This document shows, piece by piece, positions 51,054 to 63,920 of a DNA stretch of 64,000 nucleotides (the stretch's first letter is position 1; the number at the start of each line of letters is the position of its first letter). Position numbers and translations under genes: made by a program. Under the pieces are notes generated by a model. The model was not told where the DNA came from, did not search any database, and worked only from the letters and a program-made list of their open reading frames with translations. Origin of the DNA: Eledone cirrhosa (taxonomy: Eukaryota); the NCBI GenBank assembly GCA_964016885.1, contig OZ024740.1, forward strand, positions 442,184,001 through 442,248,000, read 5' to 3'.

Positions 51054-51144
51054 ATATGTATATATATATATATATATATATAATATGTATATATATATAT
51101 ATTATATATTATATATTATATATATATATTATATATATATTATA

Positions 51145-53370
51145 TTTAAAGATATTTTAGTCAACGCCTACGACAGTAAAGAAGAACAGATACAGACATT
51201 TAATGTAGAAGAGAACTGGGAGTTCCTAAAAAATAATTTACTAGAGGCGACGGACGAGGTCTGTGGTTGGAGTAAGACCTCAAGCAGGAGGAGAGTGACT
51301 TGGTGGTGGAACAATAAGGTAGATGAAGCAGTCAAGGCCAAGAGACAGGCGTGGAAAGAATGGAAGAACGGGGGGAGCAGGGTAAATTACATAGAGACCA
51401 AGAGGGAAGCTAGGCGACAAGTATACTTAGCTAGAAGGGAAGCAGAGGATAGAAAATTCAAGCATGTTTTACAACGTGAGGACCAGAAACAGGAGGTATT
51501 CAAGATTGCGAGGCAGTGTGTCAGAGATAGTTGTGATGTCATTGGAGAGAAGTGTATCCGGAATGATAAAGGTGAGCTTGCCCTCACAAGTGCTGAGAAG
51601 AAAGATGCATGGAAGAGTCATTATGATAGATTACTAAATGAGGAGAATGCATGGGAAGAAGAGACCCTACCCCAAGTAGACCCTATAGAGGGACCAGCAG
51701 TACAAGTCAGCGGCAGCGTAGTAAGTAAAGCAATCAGAGATATGAAGATGGGGAAGGCAACCGGTCCATCGGGTATAGCTGCCGAGATGCTGAAGGCATC
51801 TGGGTCTGTAGGTCACACTATAACCACACGTATCGTTAACCAGGTAATACTAGAAGGGGCCATACCAAAAGATTGGTGCAGTAGCATCATTGTCAACTGC
51901 TACAAAGGCAAAGGCGACGTACTAGATAGAGGAAACTATAGAGGTATAAAGTTGATGGACCAGGTCATGAAAGTAACAGAAAGAGTTATAGCACAGCTGA
52001 TTAGGGACCGGGTGAATATAGACGAGATGCAATTTGGGTTTGTACCAGGAAGAGGCACCACTGATGCCCTCTTCCTTGTGAGGCAATTACAGGAAAAGTA
52101 CCTAGCTAAAAGTAAGCCACTCTACTTGGCATTTGTCGACCTTGAGAAAGCCTTTGACAGAGTTCCACGTGCTGTAATCTGGCGGGCTCTTAGAAAACTA
52201 GGAGTAGATGAATGGCTTGTGAATGCGGTACAAGCCATGTATAGGGGAGCAGTCAGCAAAGTTAGGATTAGCAATGAGTATAGCGAGGAATTTAGCGTAC
52301 AGGTTGGGGTCCACCAGGGCTCTGTTCTTAGCCCTCTCCTGTTCATCATAGTCCTGCAGGCAATAACGGAGGAATTTAAGACCGGATGCCCATGGGAACT
52401 CCTGTATGCTGATGACCTCGCACTCATAGCTGAATCTATGAGAGAACTAGAGAATAAATTCCAAACCTGGAAGCAGGGACTAGAGAGAAAGGGTCTCAAA
52501 GTCAACATGACAAAGACTAAGGTCCTTGTAAGTAGACGAGAAAACAGAACCCAGATCCCCTCAGGGAAATGGCCTTGCTCAGTATGTAGGAAAGGTGTAG
52601 GTAGGAAATCCATTCTCTGCCCCAAATGCAAACAATGGGTACACAAGAGATGTAGCGGGATCTCAGGAAGCTTAATTAAGAATGTAGGATTCACATGCAG
52701 CAGCTGTGCTGAAACAGCAAGCAGCAAACAGCCACAGGAAACAAGTACCACCAATCTCTGGGAGGGCCCTGTAGAAACAGTAGACAGCTTCTGCTACCTA
52801 GGTGACCGAATTAGCAACGGAGGTGGGTGTTCAGAAAGTACAATAACTAGGGTAAGAACGGGATGGAAGAAGTTTAGGGAACTACTACCACTGCTAGCTG
52901 CAAAAGGCTTCTCCCTCAGAATGAAAGGCAGACTGTATGATGCGTGTATCCGAACAGCGATGTTGCATGGTAGTGAGACCTGGGCGCTGAAGGTGGAAGA
53001 CTTGCGTAGATTAGAGAGAAACGAAGCCTGCATGCTCCGATGGATGTGTAACAGTAATATACGTGAACGACAAAGCATAAATGAATTGAGAGAGAGACTG
53101 AGCATAAGAGGAATCAAATGCTGTGTGCAGGATAGGCGGTTGCGCTGGTATGGACATGTGATGCGTATGAAGGATGACAGCTGCATAAAAAGGTGCAGAG
53201 CACTAGAAGTTGATGGAAACCGCGGAGTGGGGAGACCCAAGATGACCTGGGATGAGGTGATAAAAGCCGACCTTACCCAATTACACCTCTCAAAGACAAT
53301 GACACACGATCGTGACTTCTGGCGTCACGCAGTAATACAGAGTACCCGACCTCCCATGGGTACATGCTGA
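51145..53370 (+). CDS. RTE reverse transcriptase with embedded PHD-like C4HC3 finger (partial)
   Basis: KATGPSG, NYRGIKL, QFGF, FVDLEKAFD, GVHQGSVLSPLLF, YADD (52405-52416), FCYLG, HGSETW, RLRWYGH. The N-terminal YI stretch in the track is microsatellite. Confidence 0.93.
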   Translation, partial: FKDILVNAYDSKEEQIQTFNVEENWEFLKNNLLEATDEVCGWSKTSSRRRVTWWWNNKVDEAVKAKRQAWKEWKNGGSRVNYIETKREARRQVYLARREAEDRKFKHVLQREDQKQEVFKIARQCVRDSCDVIGEKCIRNDKGELALTSAEKKDAWKSHYDRLLNEENAWEEETLPQVDPIEGPAVQVSGSVVSKAIRDMKMGKATGPSGIAAEMLKASGSVGHTITTRIVNQVILEGAIPKDWCSSIIVNCYKGKGDVLDRGNYRGIKLMDQVMKVTERVIAQLIRDRVNIDEMQFGFVPGRGTTDALFLVRQLQEKYLAKSKPLYLAFVDLEKAFDRVPRAVIWRALRKLGVDEWLVNAVQAMYRGAVSKVRISNEYSEEFSVQVGVHQGSVLSPLLFIIVLQAITEEFKTGCPWELLYADDLALIAESMRELENKFQTWKQGLERKGLKVNMTKTKVLVSRRENRTQIPSGKWPCSVCRKGVGRKSILCPKCKQWVHKRCSGISGSLIKNVGFTCSSCAETASSKQPQETSTTNLWEGPVETVDSFCYLGDRISNGGGCSESTITRVRTGWKKFRELLPLLAAKGFSLRMKGRLYDACIRTAMLHGSETWALKVEDLRRLERNEACMLRWMCNSNIRERQSINELRERLSIRGIKCCVQDRRLRWYGHVMRMKDDSCIKRCRALEVDGNRGVGRPKMTWDEVIKADLTQLHLSKTMTHDRDFWRHAVIQSTRPPMGTC

Positions 53371-53682
53371 AGCATATAAACAATATGCCCCCACACCCCC
53401 CACCGCAAGGTGGTCGTGGAGGTGCCACGGCAAAAAAAGCACCCAGCCCACAATGTAAAGTGGACGTGTAGGCGCCACGAAAAAGCACCCAGCACTCACT
53501 GTAAATGAGGTTGGTGTTAGGAAGGGCATCCAGCTGTAGAAATCAAGCCAGATCAGTTTCTGTATGAGCAAGGCATGGTCAGCCGACCAGACACTGCACA
53601 CAACAGGACAACCCGTCTAACCCATGCTAGCGTAGAAGAACGGACGTAAAACGGTGATGATGATGATGATGATGATGATGAT
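51145..53682 (+). mobile_element. RTE-clade LINE, 5'-truncated (no APE domain), with (GAT)9 tail
   Basis: Uninterrupted RT ORF, ~285-nt 3' UTR, tail at 53656-53682, TA on both sides. Confidence 0.95.
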
Positions 53683-54375: not shown

Positions 54376-54693
54376 TATAAAGAAAAAGAGTTGAAATCGA
54401 AAATGCAACTAGTGTCTTATTTTTTTTTAAAATATATATATTTATTTGGTTCCTTTACCGGTTTCGCAGTTCTTCTGCTTTTCAAAAGGTGAGTTGAGAT
54501 GGAGGGTCTGTGGTTTTTCTCACATCTGCTTGGTCTCTGAATGTTACTTGTTTTATATGGAAAAAGTGGCTCGAAATGCCAGGTTTTTCGAGAAGTAATT
54601 TGATTGGTTTGTCAATAATTATAATAAATTTCGCGCCAATTCGCGTTACAATAGTTCTTCAAATAAGGGGGGGGGGGGTTGTCACAGGTTGTT
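54376..54693 (-). repeat. Inverted pLTR copy
   Basis: Reverse complement of ~58608-58924 with scattered mismatches. Lacks the last ~60 nt of the direct copy. Confidence 0.95.
54452..54489 (-). ncRNA. Hammerhead ribozyme (U3-A8 core variant) in the inverted pLTR
   Basis: Exact reverse complement of 58812-58849. Confidence 0.8.
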
Positions 54694-55103
54694 AACCCAT
54701 TTTTAAAACAAACTAAAACTCACACACCACATGCCCAACAAATAACAAAAAAAGTAACAAAACGTCCAACATACCCCCAGCAAAACTATAACGATAATCC
54801 CAGAAACCATATTCAAAACTATAACCCTACTAACAAAAACCAAAGATCCCCGAACACAAGGCAGGACCTGATCCGCAGATCACAACCCACATAAAACCTA
54901 TTCCAAAACCGTAGACCCCTGCCCACACAGAGCCTCTTCCAAAACCATAGATCCCAACCCACACAAAGGAACCAAATCTACAACCCGGACTATCAACAAA
55001 CCGAACCTCAATACGTCCGAAACTTCTATACAAGACCACACAACAACAGGGGAAATACCATTAGATATAATAATACCAATGAAAAAACATTCCCGAAAAA
55101 TCA

Positions 55104-55144
55104 TTTTTTAGACCAAGGCTACAGGACTCACGAGACCCGGTGGC
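55104..55144 (+). promoter_or_regulatory. Putative -1 frameshift signal, copy B
   Basis: TTTTTTA at 55104-55110 in the same phase as copy A. Hairpin GCTAC-A-GG-A-CT-CACG-AG-A-CC-CG-GTGGC. Confidence 0.75.
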
Positions 55145-57412
55145 ACAAACCGATTTTGAAAAACCGAAAATAATTTACATTTCAAATACAAACCTCTCAG
55201 CCCAACAAGTAAAAATTCTCTCCAAAGGTCTGAAATTCACACCAACACCACAACACCCTAACCCCAACGAGATAAATGACGATATCTCACACTTCTGTAG
55301 AAAATTACGTCTCACAGAGGAATTCTTTGACAAGGAGAATAACGACGAATCAATTGTACGGAATAAAAGCAGCTACAACCCAATAAAAGGTAGAAACAGA
55401 GTTCTGGACAAATTTTGTGACCACATAGCTACCTTCCCATACCATGAACTACCGCAACCTAAACCCAAACCCAACACGAGTCGAAGGGAATGGGAGATTA
55501 TCCATGAACTAAAAAACAATACGGACATTATAATTAAGGAAGCGGGCAAGGGAAGTACTGTTGTCATTATGGAGGCTGAAAAATATAAAAATTCTATGTT
55601 CTCTCTCTTACAAAATACTAATTACTATGAAAGAGTAAAAAACTACTAGCAATCAAAAATAATGACCAAATTAAACACACTGATTTATCGATACCAGGAA
55701 GACCTAACTAAAAAGGAACGCGATTATTTAACAAATTTTGAATACAAAACCAGCAACCTTTACGGACTTCCGAAGATCCACAAGTGTAAAATAATCAACG
55801 ATGCCTGTAAACAATCCACCTCAGCCTGCGTGAACACACAATACCCCACAGACCTTAAATTAAGACCAATTGTAGCGGGCCCACAATGTGAAGCACACAG
55901 ATTGAGCAACTTTATAGACATACTACTGAAACCAATACTGAAACACATACCAAGCCTTGTAAGAGACGATCTGGACCTCTTAAACCACCTCCCCAAACAT
56001 GTCAACAACGACACTATTATTGTGTCTTTCGATGTAGTGAATCTCTACACAACGATCCCACACCAATACGGACTAGAAGCAATAGGATTCTGGCTAGAGA
56101 AATATCCCAATGTGATACCTGACAGAATAGAAAAAAGCTTCATCACCGAGGGATTAAAATTCATCCTACAGAAGAACTTTTCTGATTTCGATGGCAATAC
56201 TTACAAGCAAATATGGGGGACTGCGATGGGTACAAAAGCCGCTCCAACTTATGCCAACTTAGTCATGGCATACTTAGAAGTCCAGATATATGAACAGTCC
56301 AAATCAAAATACGGATTGAACTTCCACAAATATTTATCAGAGAATTGGAAACGCTACTTGGATGATTGCCTCATTATTTGGTCCCACACACTCGACCAAC
56401 TGAAGGATTTCAAAAACTTAATAAACGGCATCAATAACCACATCCAATTCACAATGGAATACAGCCAAGATCAACTCCCATTTCTGGACATCTTAATCTT
56501 AAAAAAAGACACAAATATAGAAACTGACATACACTACAAACCAACAGATTCCAAACAATATCTGCTATTCACCTCCAACCATCCAAAGCACACGAAGACG
56601 AATATTCCTTTTAACCTAGCAAGAAGAATTTGCACAATTGTCTCCAATTATGAAACGCGAAATAAAAGACTTCAAGAATTAAAGGAAATTCTACTCGAGA
56701 GAGAGAGTACCCACTATTACTAATAAATAATGGAATAGAAAGGGCTAAAGCAATAGGCATTGATGAATTACGGAAACAGAAACAAATTCAAGGTACGTCC
56801 AATATTCTATCATATATCTCAACACACAACCCAAGAAATGCGGAAGCTTACAACACTATTCACAATAACATCCCACTACTAAAACAAAACCCAAGAATGA
56901 AAAAAGCCCTTGAAACACACAAAATAATCAAAAGCAAAAGACAACCAAAATCACTGAAAACATTACTCACCAATGCCAAATTACCTACCACAAACCCACA
57001 ACCAAGTATCAAAAAATGTGGTCGCTCTAATTGTGGAACCTGCACTCACCTCATTGAAGGCAACACGTATACATTTAAATCAGGACAAAATTTTACTGTA
57101 AAAAATCACTTCACTTGCTCATCAAAAAATCTAATTTATGCCATTAAATGTAAAGGATGCAATGAAGATTATATAGGACAAACTAAACTCACACTCAGAA
57201 ACAGAATGACAGTTCATCGCCAACAATTACCAGATCCAACCACGAGGCAGATACCACTAAGTGCACATTTAGACATTTGCGCAAGTAATAAGACACCCAA
57301 ATTCCAAGTCTTCCCATTTTACCTTTGCGCTAACAATACAACAGAACAAATGCGAATAAATAAGGAAAATATGTTTATTCAAAAATATAGACCAACATTA
57401 AATAAGGTTTAA
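55104..57412 (+). pseudogene. Neptune RT, Cys-rich linker and GIY-YIG endonuclease
   Basis: LSKGLKFTP, IKEAGKG (DKG motif altered), YGLPKIHK, LRPIVAG, SFDVVNLYT, GTAMGT, RYLDD (YLDD 56355-56366), LPFLD, CGRSNCGTC, LIY..CKGC..YIGQT. Stop at 55647-55649; frameshift in a GA run near 56700. Confidence 0.93.
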
Positions 57413-57890
57413 TATACATTATGTCAACACCATAATATGACATACACACACACACATAACACCTTCTACTTTAGAAAATAAAAACCCGAACTAAATAAAC
57501 CTTAACATACGTTTGCACTGACAATACAACAGCAAACACGAATAAGTAAGGAAAATATGTTCATTCAAAAATATTCCTACTAAAGGAATCACTTTCCTAC
57601 ACACACACATACACACACACACAATATATATATATATATATATTCTCTTCATCTTAACATGCTAACCATACTCCCACACACATAACACCCATACACACAC
57701 ATAACAACCTCCACACCCACAAATCCCTCCCCATTTTTACTAATAGAACCACTTTCCTACACACATATATATACACACACACAAAATATATATTCTCTCC
57801 ATCTTAACATACTCGCACACACACACATAACACCCATATACACACACACACAACTCCCTCCCCCATTTCTACTAATAGAATCATCTTCCA

Positions 57891-57936
<46 letters not shown>

Positions 57937-57940
57937 ATAC

Positions 57941-58237
57941 ACACACACAAGCACACAAATAAACATACATATCTTCACTTCAATAGAAAATCTGAACTCT
58001 GACACCCCAGCGAACTAACCATATTCACTGAACCAGAACAATCCCTTTTCTCTTGACCACTATCTTTCCATTGTCATAACATTCGCTATAAAGACGACAG
58101 AATAGTTTTCCAAATAAGGGCGCAAAAATGTAATGAAAACTTGTTCACGTGACAGCCAAATTTCATTTATAACCAATCAAATCACGTTTATTAAAAAAAA
58201 GCCTTCGTGAGCCACCTTTTTTTAAAGTAAAGAAATT

Positions 58238-58300
<63 letters not shown>

Positions 58301-58595
58301 GCACACAAATAAACACACATATCTTTACTTTCTTTATTCAATAGAAAATCTGAATTCTGACACCCCAGCGAACTAACCATATTCACTGAACCAGAACAAT
58401 TCTCCCATCCCTTTCTCTTGACCATTATCTTTTTATCAAAAAATTCTCTAAAAAGGCTAGAGAATGGATTTCCAAATAAGAGCACAAAAACTTAATGAAA
58501 ATTTGTTCACGTGACAGCCATAATTTCATTTATAACCAACCCCCAAAAAGCCTTCGTGAGCCTCCTTTTTTCAAGTAAAATGAAATTCAAACACT
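57941..58595 (+). repeat. Two ~350-bp diverged tandem units in the Neptune 3' UTR, separated by (CA)n
   Basis: CAATAGAAAATCTGAA.TCTGACACCCCAGCGAACTAACCATATTCACTGAACCAGAACAAT at ~57980 and ~58340. GTTCACGTGACAGCC and GCCTTCGTGAGCC also occur twice. Confidence 0.9.
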
Positions 58596-58811
58596 CATAT
58601 ATGAAAAAACAACCTGTGACAACCCGCCCCCCTCTTATTTGAAGAACTATTGTAACGCGAACTGGCGCGAAATTTATTATAATTATTGACAAACCAATCA
58701 AATTACTTCTCGAAAAACCTTGTATTTCGAGCCACTTTTTCCATATAAAACAAGTAACATTCAAAGACCAACCAGATGTGAGAAAAACCACAGACCCTCC
58801 ATCTCAACTCA

Positions 58812-58849
58812 CCTTTTGAAAAGCAGAAGAACTGCGAAACCGGTAAAGG
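58812..58849 (+). ncRNA. Minimal type I hammerhead ribozyme, U3-A8 core variant
   Basis: CCTT-TTGAAAA-GCAG-AAGAA-CTGC-GAAA-CCGG-TA-AAGG. Palindromic stem III; AATAAA just downstream. Predicted cut between 58845 and 58846. Confidence 0.8.
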
Positions 58850-59003
58850 AACCAAATAAATATATATATTTAAAAAAAAATAAGACTCTAGTTGCATTTT
58901 CGATTTCATCTCTTTTTCTTTATACTCTCACTCGTGTAGGACACCTCGGTTATTTCTCATTTTGTAAAAAAAACCTCACTTTCTTATATATATATATATA
59001 TAA

Positions 59004-59043
<40 letters not shown>

Positions 59044-59359
59044 ATATGTATATATATATATATATATATAAAATGAAGGAAGTGAGGTAAGGAACCAGGT
59101 GGACCATAATGCACCAGAGTACTTTGGGTAGTAGAGTGGGTAATAGGAAAACGTTCAGGACCCCGACGGCTATATCTGGACACACACATATATATATATG
59201 GGGTAACAAGTTATCGTTATAGGTAATCCAGTTAGAGGTTGTGAGTACTCTGCCTCGTGTATAGTTTTAACGTACGGCTTTGTTTGACTCAACAAGATGT
59301 TTCCATAGTTAGGCAGCGAGTTCGTGGTAATTCCTATGTCGGTTATACTTGGAGTAATA

Positions 59360-59550
59360 ATAGTGAAAGAATAAAGAGTAACATGGTTTTCTGATGAGTT
59401 GGTCAGAGGTAAATAATGTAATGGAGATCGAGTTACGCAACTTCGATCGATTAGCGACCTCTAGACTCACCTGATCAATGAAACAATTGTCAATACCTGA
59501 AATAAAGCCCCTTATTGTACAGCCAACCATGTTACTCTTCATTCTTTCAC

Positions 59551-59553
<3 letters not shown>
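59360..59553. repeat. 29-bp inverted repeat (59360-59388 / 59525-59553) enclosing the HHR
   Basis: ATAGTGAAAGAATAAAGAGTAACATGGTT vs AACCATGTTACTCTTCATTCTTTCACTAT, 28/29 complementary. Confidence 0.95.
59385..59497 (+). ncRNA. Hammerhead ribozyme with expanded stem II
   Basis: GGTTTT-CTGATGA-GTTGGTCAG-(64 nt)-CTGATCAAT-GAAA-CAATTG-TC-AATACC. GUC cleavage triplet; AATAAA at 59501. Confidence 0.8.
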
Positions 59554-59617
<64 letters not shown>

Positions 59618-59666
59618 AAGTAATTAAGTCAAATATTTAAGATTTGGCTTCGTTTATTAAAGATGT

Positions 59667-59721
59667 ACTGCTATATATATTTCGGTGACAGCCATCATTG
59701 GCTGTGACCTCTTCAGGCAGT
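59667..59721 (-). ncRNA. Minimal type I hammerhead ribozyme
   Basis: Minus strand: ACTGC-CTGAAGA-GGTCACAGCCA-ATGA-TGGCTGTCACC-GAAA-TATATA-TA-GCAGT, then AATAAA. Confidence 0.93.
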
Positions 59722-60684
59722 TCGAATTGGTGTGGTAGAGACAGGTACACATGTTGTTAAAGTGTTTTACTCCGTCAATACTCCGATATGTCCAGCTCCT
59801 GGTTGGGTTGTTATTTCTCTGAGGAACTGGAATCATATGAATTCGAACAAACGAATTTTGGCATCATAGGACACTCTCTCCTCCCATTGGTCAGCTGTGA
59901 GAACATTCCTCAGTCGAAAGTCTATACAAATTTTTTTCTGAGGCAAGACAATCTATTGTGGTTGTTTTTGTTAAGTACAGCTGACCTCCTCCCTTGTGTT
60001 TATTGGTGTTAGGGGGTCAGCTGGCAGGTCAGCCTTAGTTCTATTGCTGCTGTCTTTAGAAAAATGAGTGTGTGTGGGTTGGCCTCAATCCTACCACCCT
60101 TTCACGTGGTGGGGGTGCCAAACAGATAATTGAATCAGATAAGGTAAAATGAAGAAATAAAATATAAAAAAATAAGATAAAATAAATAATAAAATAATAA
60201 GATAAGATACAATAAAATGAAGAAGTAAAAATATAAATAAATAAATGAATAAAATAGAATAAAATGCGTGTTTGTTATATCAAATATCAAAGAAGAATAA
60301 AGTGCGTGTGTGTTATAGCCAATATTAAAGTTTGAAAGATTTGGAAAATATTGACTGAAGTATAAAGGCTATGTGTCAGAATCGGGAAATGCAAAGGATT
60401 ACCATCTTTACACTATCATGGGTGGTGCGTTTTAAGAGCAAATGAGGCAAGAGTGGAGTGTAAAACACCATAAACTGAATGTCAAAATCCGGAAATGCAG
60501 AGGACTACAGTTTTTAATTCGGCATAGAGTACACATGCGTGTATGTCAACCCACATCGTTGCAAGCCCACACGCACCAACACGGGCCCAGGTGCATCCCA
60601 TATTCACACACACCCACCCACACAGATTATACAAACACACACACACCCATATATATATATATGTATATATAAACTCGCACACAC

Positions 60685-60716
<32 letters not shown>

Positions 60717-61014
60717 GCATATGTAAGTATCAGTGCATGTACAATCTTAAATAACAGGATCTATGTATGGACATATGCATAAGTCTGTGCTGCCATAGGA
60801 GTCGAGCGAGGCAAGGGTACGGGTGGTGAAAGTTTAGGGGGTGGTTTACCGTGGATTCGGTGTGCCGAGGCTACTGTCCCTTTAGCTTGAGGGAAGTTCC
60901 TTCTCAATGCGTTGTTGTTGCCCATATATATAGAGGAAGTTCTCGGCTCTGAGGTGTCTACAAGTCCCGGGGAAGTCCCTATAGCTTGAGGGAAGTTCCC
61001 CTCCCAGTGTGTTG

Positions 61015-62700
61015 TTATTGTCCATATAGCTTGAAGAAGGTCCCGGCCCTGAGGTGTCTACATGTCCCGAAGAAGTCAGTCCCGAGGTTTATCAGGCTGC
61101 TTCCACTGCTGAGTATCTCGAGGGTCTCGCTCAGACATAGCTGCAGATGCCACACCGCCTTTATCAAGTGGTACTTTCCTGATTTTGGACCAGGCCAGAG
61201 AGTACGGGGTCCTGTCCAGCTTGAGCTTCCAGATCAGTTCGGAAAGAGCCGTACTTTTCCTTTTGTCCTACTATTAAAGGAATGGCGATGGTTATACCAT
61301 CGGTCCTTAAAGCTCGTTGATGTGGCTCCTATGTAAAGGTGTTCAGAGTTGGGGTTTTTTACTCTACATCCGTATATTAAGTTCTTCCTTGGGCATTCAT
61401 TACTAAGGGGCATAATGCTGAGTTTCTGCAGTTGCAGGAGGTCGTCGACCACCGCGTGCCTAATGTGGGGTTCCCGTTGCGTATTATATGGTGGTCCTCC
61501 TCCGGTCCCGGTGGGGGGTCCCTGGGTCTGTTTGGATTACTGGGTCCACCCTTCTTTCCCTCCACATGGTTCTGCCGGGTGCCTATATTGCCAGCTTCCG
61601 GTTGTGTGTGGTTTTTAAGTCTACCCCTATTAATGTTAGCTATGTGCTGGGCCACATTTCGCGTGGTAGAATATGAGAGCTTTACAGTATGTCTGTTGAA
61701 CGTCTTGCGGTATCTATGGTCCTTCGGGAAGCATTTATCTAGTGCTCTAAAGAATGAGCGGGCAATGCTGTTCTTTAGGGCCGCTGAGTATGGTGGATTG
61801 TACCACGTGATTTTTCTGTGTCTACTCCTATGTGGGTGGGTTAGCGTGTCGTGGGCTGTTGGGGAGTTGTTGGGTTTCTAGTGGTTCCAGTATTGCTGCT
61901 TCCCCTTTGGGCGCTATGTGTTCTGCTAACTTCCCGGCCCGTATCTCTGGGGTGGTTGTTACCCACGCTGGGAGTGCTACGGTGGGATGGTTTTCCATCG
62001 GTCCTGCTTCGTGTCTTGCGGTTGGGGGCGTCGGGCACGGGATGGTTGATATCACCCTCTGAGACCGCTACTAGTACCGGGTTTCCTCCCATGGTTATGT
62101 GTACGCGTGCCCCTCGCCAATGTGGTGGTGTCAGGTTCATGGTGTTTAGTTGTTTTTACTCTGCTTGTATTGTTAGGGTCCCCCCTCCCAGATCCCGTGG
62201 GTCGGGGTGTCCGTTGGGTTATCTCCGCAATGGCGCCTCGGATTATATGATATATCTTGGCCATGCGCCGCCTTATTTAGAGCTGCGTTGTAATATTCCG
62301 CGTTGCTATCGAAGATCTCCTTATTTGCGGACAAGCTGGAGATCCTGTCCGAGACACTATTCACTACGGCCTTAATTATGGATCTAGGGTGGTTTGACTT
62401 GGCGTTAACATATACCAGTTTCTCGTTGGGCTTGTGATAGGGGTAGTATTGCTCGGTTTTCAGGTTTAGGGTGGTGTCTAGGAAGTTAACTACCTTTCTA
62501 TTTGGGTCTAGTTCGATATTGAGCCCATGGCTCTTAAAGAACTGCCGAATACGCCTCTTCATTCTCTCCACCATAGTGGTGCTGTGGTCATAGACTGTGA
62601 AGAGTGTATCGTCACGATACAATCCGCCGCCCACACAGGGGATTTCATCTTTTATCTGCTTCAGCAGGAATAGCCCGACGAGGTCCGTTACCTGTGCTCT
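61015..62700 (-). pseudogene. PLE RT C-terminal half and GIY-YIG, multiple frameshifts
   Basis: AQVTDLVGLFLL, GLYRDD, VNFLDTTL, SNHP, ITWYNPPYS, CNCRNSALCPL, LIY..LYIGAT..RWYNH, STALSELIWKLK, LCLSE, TCRH. Confidence 0.9.
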
Positions 62701-63104
62701 TTGTATAGAGGAAATATTCTTTATATTAAAAAGCAAAAATTCTGTGAATTTAAGGAACAATCTTTTCCGTTGCTGCAAACGTAGATTAAATTCAACGTTT
62801 AAATATAAATTTAAAATGTAATATATAACTCATCTTATTAAACCTATCGATAAATCATTAGATTCCTTCATACGACGGCCAAAAACTCTCTTAAATGAAG
62901 AAAAGTTTTTTCCTTAAAGTTTTTCCTTGAAAATTCTTCAAGATAAACATACTGAAAGTTTTTTTAAAAATGGGTATAAAAAATTAAGATAAACATACTG
63001 AAAGTTTCTAAAAAACAGTTTTTTTTTGTTAATTCCTCTGATAGATATAAACAATTATAATTCATATTTTATGCTGTGTTTTTTCTATATATTCTTATAT
63101 ATAT

Positions 63105-63262
63105 TTTAAAAATTATATTGCTTAAAAATTACATATTTTTAGAATTATATTGCTTTAAAATTACATTGCTTAAAAATATAATTCCTTTTAAAATTATATA
63201 ATTATATCTTTTTTAAAAATTGTAATTCCTTTTAAAATTATAATCCTTTTAAAAATTATAAC
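63105..63262. repeat. Degenerate ~20-bp AT-rich tandem repeat in unclassified AT-rich DNA
   Basis: TTTTAAAAATTATATTGC / TTTTAAAATTATAATCC-like units. Confidence 0.6.
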
Positions 63263-63920
63263 TCATATTTTATTTTATATTATGTATTTTGTATTTATAT
63301 ATATATATATATGTATATGTGTATATGTATATGTGTGTATATGTATGTATATATATATATGTGTGTGTATATATGCGTATGTATACATGTATGTATGTCT
63401 GTGTATATGTGTATATATATCGAAATGTAAAATTTGAATACATTCTATCAATGAACTCATATAAACCGTTTTTACGGTTTATGCTTTAGATATATTCTTA
63501 TGAAAAACTTTAAACATTAAAACGTTATAGTAAACAAACTTATATTTTAACAGTCACAACTGTATAACAGGTGGGTTTATAAAAAATATATAAAATTTAT
63601 AAAATTATAACTTACTATAAAATAATATAAGGTTCTCTTATAACCTTAACTTTTTTATCATCTTAACATTTATCCTTAGAGCTATCTAAATTACAAATAA
63701 ATCAATTAATTTTCCCTCACGCTGTATTGCTATTACTAAGAAGAGATTTTTCTTCGGTAAAATCTCTGAACATTCCTATATTTTAAACATATATTTTGTT
63801 ATTTCTTATAAGTGTTATTGTTAATTGAAAAATTAATAATTAATTGTTGGTTGATGATTAATAATAAATTTATGTAAGGTGATGTAATAATAACATATAT
63901 TTTAATAATATTTTTTGATA

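Follow-up and report, generated by a model that had tools for sequence, protein, structure and literature searches.

The hammerhead motif at 59360–59553 of the window (the whole 64,000-nucleotide stretch of DNA analysed here) lies inside a 29-bp inverted repeat, which raises the question of whether the two arms control a ribozyme or reflect the way in which the repeat was inserted. The sequence-only reading of the locus had offered two answers: a non-autonomous, retrozyme-like element with a conformational switch, or a tiny insertion of a Penelope-like element (PLE) with an inverted end. The window is animal DNA rich in microsatellites, and the repeat that holds the motif is a 354-bp unit, 59200–59553, located between two (TA)n tracts (Table 1). 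We consider it probable that this unit consists of two truncated 3′ ends of one hammerhead-bearing PLE family, inserted back to back. Because the unit is likely built in this way, the inverted repeat is likely the stretch common to both ends and not a switch.

The core of a type I hammerhead, claimed from the sequence, is present, with CUGAUGA at 59391–59397 and GAAA at 59480–59483, followed by the GUC site, after which the cut is predicted, and the palindromic CAATTG of stem III. The 64-nt insert in stem II contains both the inner hairpin and the alternative pairing that had been described, the latter with pair probabilities of 0.98–1.0 in the computed ensemble. Stem I has five of six pairs and one U-U mismatch, and stem II has 9 bp with a G-U closing pair. 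The inverted repeat was recovered with an E value of 1.2e-7 within the window; its left arm covers four of the six stem I positions, as the proposed overlap with the 5′ strand of stem I implied, and no ORF was found inside the unit. Thus, the features attributed to the piece starting at 59360 stand, and it is its boundary that moves, since the repeat begins at 59200, after (TA)n. The motif has the core CUGANGA, GAAA, and NUH of PLE minimal hammerheads and their palindromic positions 15.2–16.2 plus loop 3, and its helices of 9 bp (helix II) and five of six bp (helix I) were counted as agreeing with the 7–8 and 4–5 bp of that class.

Table 1. Features of the 354-bp unit and its flanks, in window coordinates.
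Feature	Position	Strand	Basis
Left (TA)n tract, likely target	59188–59199		Sequence; in 70 X1 contigs the loose ends ahead of 59188 consist of (TA)n, agreement 0.56
160-bp extension (long tail) of the family 3′ end, inverted at this locus	59200–59359	−	Opposite-strand joints; high depth throughout
41-bp short form of the tail, attached straight to the arm in another contig	59200–59240	−	Joint 59240>59552 in one X1 contig, depth 407
Decayed tRNA-His-like cassette	59222–59305	+	A-box-like 59224, anticodon-arm-like 59244–59260, B-box-like 59282, T stem, CCA 59303–59305
Left arm, repeating in inverted form the final 29 bp of the short 3′ end	59360–59388	−	28/29 matching
Type I hammerhead motif of PLE minimal type, predicted cut 59491/59492	59385–59497	+	Layout as PLE motifs in File S2 of PMC8557442
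64-nt loop II, common to the family	59407–59470	+	Match to X1 record 8
Palindromic stem III/loop 3, with pairing expected in a dimer	59483–59490	+	Sequence; 8-bp duplex −6.4 kcal/mol
AATAAA, 9 nt past the predicted cut site	59501–59506	+	9 and 13 nt in two neighbouring PLEs
Right arm, short 3′ end of the element	59525–59553	+	Inverted-repeat match
Right (TA)n tract, likely target, common to the unit and the minus-strand PLE	59551–59612		Sequence

The occurrence of hammerhead motifs exceeds chance: our own descriptor finds two in 54380–63300, and Markov simulations contained at least one in 4 of 300 and two in 1 of 300. The Rfam search returned no hammerhead family with either threshold. Neither the supplement of PMC8557442 nor that of PMC13282606 contains the 11-letter stem III motif. 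A likeness of 9 letters to the sequence flanking the Hydra-1_oBim motif on its 5′ side was set aside as chance level by estimate, and a second decayed hammerhead inside the extension was rejected (p 0.8).

Other copies of the unit were sought in sequencing reads. Four of the eight listed runs were aligned to 59072–59556 at 80% likeness, and reads covered 29 of 29 bins in all four. X1 contributes 8118 matching contigs and each RAD run about 14,500 reads, many of them on the separate fragment 59075–59171, and the repeat family is high-copy. X1 may be the source of the window itself. RAD reads begin at the AATT sites 59329 and 59485, and these cut sites skew depth. The entries listed, to which the statements on individual copies refer, comprise 15 of 41 joints, 40 of 181 differences, 24 of 719 loose ends, and 16 of 8244 pieces. 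A pattern scan of metagenome contigs gave no matches, and the 14 viral and 8 prokaryotic loci from the pattern scan were dropped, as only 15–23 pattern letters match.

Three opposite-strand joints, none with a side shorter than 31 letters, link the left part of the unit to the reverse of its right part. Among the joints listed, 59359>59553 is represented by 17 and 17 reads in X6 and X7, respectively, and 59372>59540 by 34 and 15 reads. The third joint, 59240>59552, occurs in one X1 contig and leaves an extension of 41 bp, a length that is usual for such tails. When the joined copies are read along the hammerhead strand, the hammerhead side is followed by the arm and then by the extension. The joints thus display the truncated inverted copy, joined at the 5′ side, that characterizes EN+ PLEs. 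The joint reads start at just two or three places, which indicates few loci, and the lengths of the joint sides, 56 and 31 letters, match the spacing to the two AATT sites from which RAD reads run. Joints from 59199 were discarded as microsatellite matches. The piece missing from the depth-407 contig, 59241–59360, begins with GTGAGT on the plus strand and takes out most of the tRNA-like cassette; the notion that these 120 bp are an intron is not supported, as the piece has no AG end and overlaps the cassette.

The back-to-back arrangement could have arisen in a few steps. The RNA of the family would end in the order hammerhead, AATAAA, arm, and extension, and the PLE endonuclease would nick both strands of (TA)n. 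Reverse transcriptase would start at the end of the arm, copy 165 nt through the hammerhead, and stop at 59389; on the other side, it would start at the end of the extension, copy 189 nt, and stop after the arm. A short GGT common to the two cDNAs would then serve to join them head to head; it would take the place of the 5′ strand of stem I and leave the U-U mismatch. The proposed joining at GGT would thus account for both the overlap of the left arm with stem I and the mismatch. The extension itself likely derives from a tRNA-His-like short repeat, which the source copy would have taken up antisense at its 3′ flank. The PLE protein cuts and extends both strands at AT-rich sites, and its reverse transcription starts at two internal sites, the distance between which corresponds to the tail (PMC11167929). 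Among PLEs, truncated inverted copies whose tail may lie at either end are the norm (PMC8557442; PMC3846280).

Both flanks of the unit offer the AT-rich or (TA)n target of EN+ PLEs. A MITE would have inverted repeats at both termini, and here the left arm sits 160 bp inside the repeat. The single mismatch of the inverted repeat is removed by the letter found in 418 of 427 X6 reads at the left arm. The earlier suggestion of a tiny PLE insertion with an inverted end fits the read data, a neighbouring element, and published PLE structure, except that the inverted piece measures 189 bp (the arm and the 160-bp extension) rather than 29 bp. Several observations count against the back-to-back reading. 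No parent reverse transcriptase (RT) ORF was found, and the unit has no RT and GIY-YIG ORF upstream of the hammerhead. The tail on one end is 160 bp here and 41 bp in one deep contig, and the longer form far exceeds the 30–40 bp in print. Flipping between the arms would yield identical opposite-strand joints, and the two left-arm alleles that lack a right-arm partner among the differences listed would likewise suit a fixed element whose arms differ slightly. The unit appears to work like a PLE end, and no ORF was linked to it that would place it in a named PLE family.

The plan proposed for the unit can be seen in a neighbour. A decayed PLE with RVT_1/RT, Cys linker, and GIY-YIG occupies 54380–58984, 1 kb upstream of the motif, and its closest protein matches come from Octopus bimaculoides (78% identical), which makes an octopod the likely host. 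The final 318 bp of the element recur in inverted form at its 5′ side with 96.9% identity, and only one of its ends carries a 64-bp tail. A second decayed PLE extends on the minus strand from about 62800 to 59613, carries a canonical-core hammerhead at 59716–59667, and ends in the (TA)n tract of the focal unit. By eye, its motifs resemble the Hydra-clade alignment in PMC8557442. The unit has no detectable DNA kinship with these two PLEs or with the fragment 59075–59171 (all p > 0.2).

Additional observations concern the surroundings of the unit. The hammerhead of the element at 54380–58984 is a U3-A8 core variant, present in both ends (58816 plus and 54485 minus); this variant has been described for schistosome PLEs. 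A second copy of that family, at 43036–44461, lacks the sequence between the early ORF and the 3′ end; its jump falls within 1–2 nt of the predicted cut 58845/58846, at A-run microhomology. The jump may be a trace of cleaved RNA used as a template. The minus-strand fragment 59075–59171 is a 97-bp 3′ piece of another very high-copy family, whose loose ends continue into a GAAAC-stem-GTC hammerhead half; therefore, the fragment is cut inside stem III. Four PLE-type ends meet within 1 kb. Long satellites fill 1–28460 (about 380 copies of a 75-bp unit, with open frames reaching 868 aa) and 29558–36430 (about 282 copies of a 24-bp unit). An RT ORF of 761 aa at 51085–53652, with a PHD-like finger after the RT domain, lies between (TA)n tracts, ends in (TGA)n, and is likely an RTE-type LINE.

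The plus strand of the extension resembles a decayed tRNA gene. An A-box-like segment is followed by a B-box-like one within a T stem of three out of five pairs, which rises to four of five with the allele at 59279 (395 of 1121 X6 reads). After the T stem come 7 nt, one nt, and CCA, which is the exact tRNA spacing. The pattern of box, T stem, and CCA occurred in 2 of 3000 shuffles, with a descriptor written after the pattern had been seen. Compared by eye with human tRNA-His-GTG as printed in PMC12217144, the segment 59244–59260 agrees in 14 of 17 letters, and at all three differences the tRNA letter is a common allele (403 of 880, 498 of 880, and 893 of 942 X6 reads). A fourth allele, at 59253 (583 of 880), shifts away from tRNA-His. 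ARAGORN and Rfam did not detect the cassette, its anticodon stem is unpaired, and its acceptor stem forms five of seven pairs at most. The cassette is likely tRNA-derived. It is antisense to the hammerhead in colinear copies, and sense and upstream of it at this locus. The tRNA-like motif had no match among phages, and 12 viral loci with the motif were rejected because they hold no tRNA.

In the main rival of the back-to-back reading, this arrangement itself is an amplified non-autonomous SINE moved by a PLE enzyme, composed of a tRNA-His-like Pol III head, the arm, the hammerhead, and a PLE-type 3′ end. We regard such a SINE, under which the opposite-strand joints would be flips between the arms and the skips internal deletions, as unlikely. 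The cassette starts 22 bp inside the left end, which is fixed at (TA)n, and it shares the strand of the hammerhead here. Record 13 of X5, a run with a different organism label, shows the link between the head and the arm as well. X6 reads aligned to the left part carry two alleles (287 of 427 and 331 of 414) whose right-arm partners are absent among the differences listed, a point in favour of the SINE reading. However, the inner junction 59388/59389 is crossed by none of the 16 contigs listed (of 8244 pieces), and two records diverge there, record 7 with 9 unmatched letters beyond 59388 and record 8 with 57 unmatched letters before 59396. Further left/right junctions are found at 59253/59416, 59301/59435, and 59370/59498. 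The X6 depth has its minimum at the junction, with 245 at 59395–59411 versus 1123 at 59191–59207 and 758 at 59531–59547. This drop from the head inward is opposite to the 5′ truncation of a plus-strand SINE, although RAD sites confound the comparison. Of the 414 X6 reads at 59378, at most 204 can reach 59397, so up to half might cross the inner junction. Pol III terminates at T runs, and those of T4 at 59264–59269 and 59387–59390 could stop it.

The left part could also be foreign to the arm. In such a two-family arrangement, a tRNA-derived SINE would end in the TAA-rich 59352–59362, and a 194-bp PLE mini-insertion, made of a 29-bp inverted end and a 165-bp hammerhead end, would have landed in its tail. 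The boundary sequence TAATAATA would be a suitable AT-rich target, and the left part has about twice the depth of the arm. However, the head is joined to the arm in more than one copy: records 4 and 7 (X1) and 13 (X5) extend from the left part through 28–29 letters of the arm, and the X6 reads across 59378, of which there are 414, have alleles of their own. We therefore hold the two-family arrangement to be decidedly improbable.

Two truncated ends of one family remain the preferred explanation, and the read data also characterize the hammerhead of that family. X1 record 8 (depth 70.9) aligns to 59396–59556 with no gaps and 19 differences; therefore, loop II is family-wide. The pair G10.1-C11.1 is G-U in this copy and has C in the loose-end consensus of 27 X1 contigs. 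Core alleles within the family include A9U (108 of 204 X6 reads) and C17U (79 of 201).

A selected switch, in which pairing of the arms turns the ribozyme off, agrees with one of the fold predictions: with both arms present, the computed energy of the active fold exceeds that of the best fold by 20.0 kcal/mol, and pairing of the arms has a probability near 1. Removal of the right arm does not restore the active fold in the calculations, where it is still 12.3 kcal/mol worse, with a stem II probability of 0, because the core pairs into a long alternative hairpin. This hairpin is little more stable than those of shuffles (z −1.78). Pairs of the inner hairpin are disrupted by the allele at 59434, found in 304 of 319 X6 reads, and by that at 59447 (436 of 459). 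Neither allele has a partner among the differences listed, and alleles that break this hairpin occur in about 95% of the aligned reads. The A allele at 59402 (152 of 233) improves stem II, from a G-U to an A-U pair, and breaks the alternative fold. Three further alleles retain pairs of the alternative fold as G-U and are neutral on it. Because of these family alleles, the conserved structure looks like stem II rather than the competing folds. The conformational switch, which had been proposed from the sequence, is thus extremely unlikely, given that the active fold is not predicted to form, whether the right arm is present or absent, and that common alleles break the inner hairpin. The monomeric ribozyme of this copy is predicted to misfold and to lack activity, and in the family the hammerhead would cut only as a dimer or with the help of a protein.

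The retrozyme-like element, the other part of that proposal, fares little better. As the solo monomer of a tandem non-LTR retrozyme that makes small circular RNA, the unit would have a fitting length of 354 bp, a type I motif, and no ORF, and retrozymes have been proposed to derive from PLE ends (bioRxiv 10.64898/2026.07.22.740005). Nevertheless, no tandem unit is present at the locus or among the 15 of 41 joints listed, other copies carry the two halves in opposite orientation, and the layout of the motif is that of PLE minimal hammerheads. Such an origin is very improbable.

Under the back-to-back reading, the locus is an ordinary insertion scar with two oddities, the family-wide 64-nt loop II and the long tail with its tRNA-like cassette. 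The cassette allows a bolder interpretation, which we consider improbable: a PLE-type family would carry, in its tail, an inward-pointing Pol III promoter derived from tRNA-His, and back-to-back insertion would set this promoter upstream of a sense hammerhead and 3′ end, making a tRNA-headed SINE movable by the Penelope enzyme, of which this locus would be an amplified or nascent example. In the family's own orientation, the promoter would then yield the antisense RNA that has been proposed as a PLE template (PMC3846280). If the cassette were a working promoter, it would provide a route for Penelope elements to breed their own SINEs and a handle on the antisense-template idea.

The unit shares its architecture with EN+ PLE insertions (PMC8557442; PMC3846280; PMC11167929): a hammerhead near the 3′ end, a truncated inverted copy head to head, a tail at one end only, a (TA)n target, and two proposed RT start sites. 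It differs from them in that it has no ORF and no parent was found, and in that its tail of 160 bp (41 bp in another contig), instead of 30–40 bp, holds a tRNA-like cassette. The titles and abstract openings searched, which include few subscription journals and lie outside Repbase and Dfam, contain no description of such a tail or loop. The motif resembles PLE minimal hammerheads (PMC4209133; File S2 of PMC8557442) in its core CUGAUGAG, a helix II of 8–9 bp, a short helix I, and a palindromic helix III, whereas its loop II of 64 nt compares with a longest loop of 35 nt in 34 rows of File S2 of PMC8557442, where descriptors are size-limited. PLE minimal hammerheads cleave weakly and as dimers (PMC4209133). 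Like non-LTR retrozymes (PMC7229834; bioRxiv 10.64898/2026.07.22.740005), the unit is short, non-coding, and likely PLE-dependent, and has a type I motif; unlike them (PMC7229834), it is not tandem, has two oppositely oriented halves, and is known here from DNA alone. The schistosome SM-alpha SINE-like retroposons (PMC8490949) similarly combine a length of about 335–354 bp, SINE-like features, and a type I hammerhead, whereas the family described here has PLE-type ends and, in its other copies, a tRNA-like part antisense to the hammerhead.
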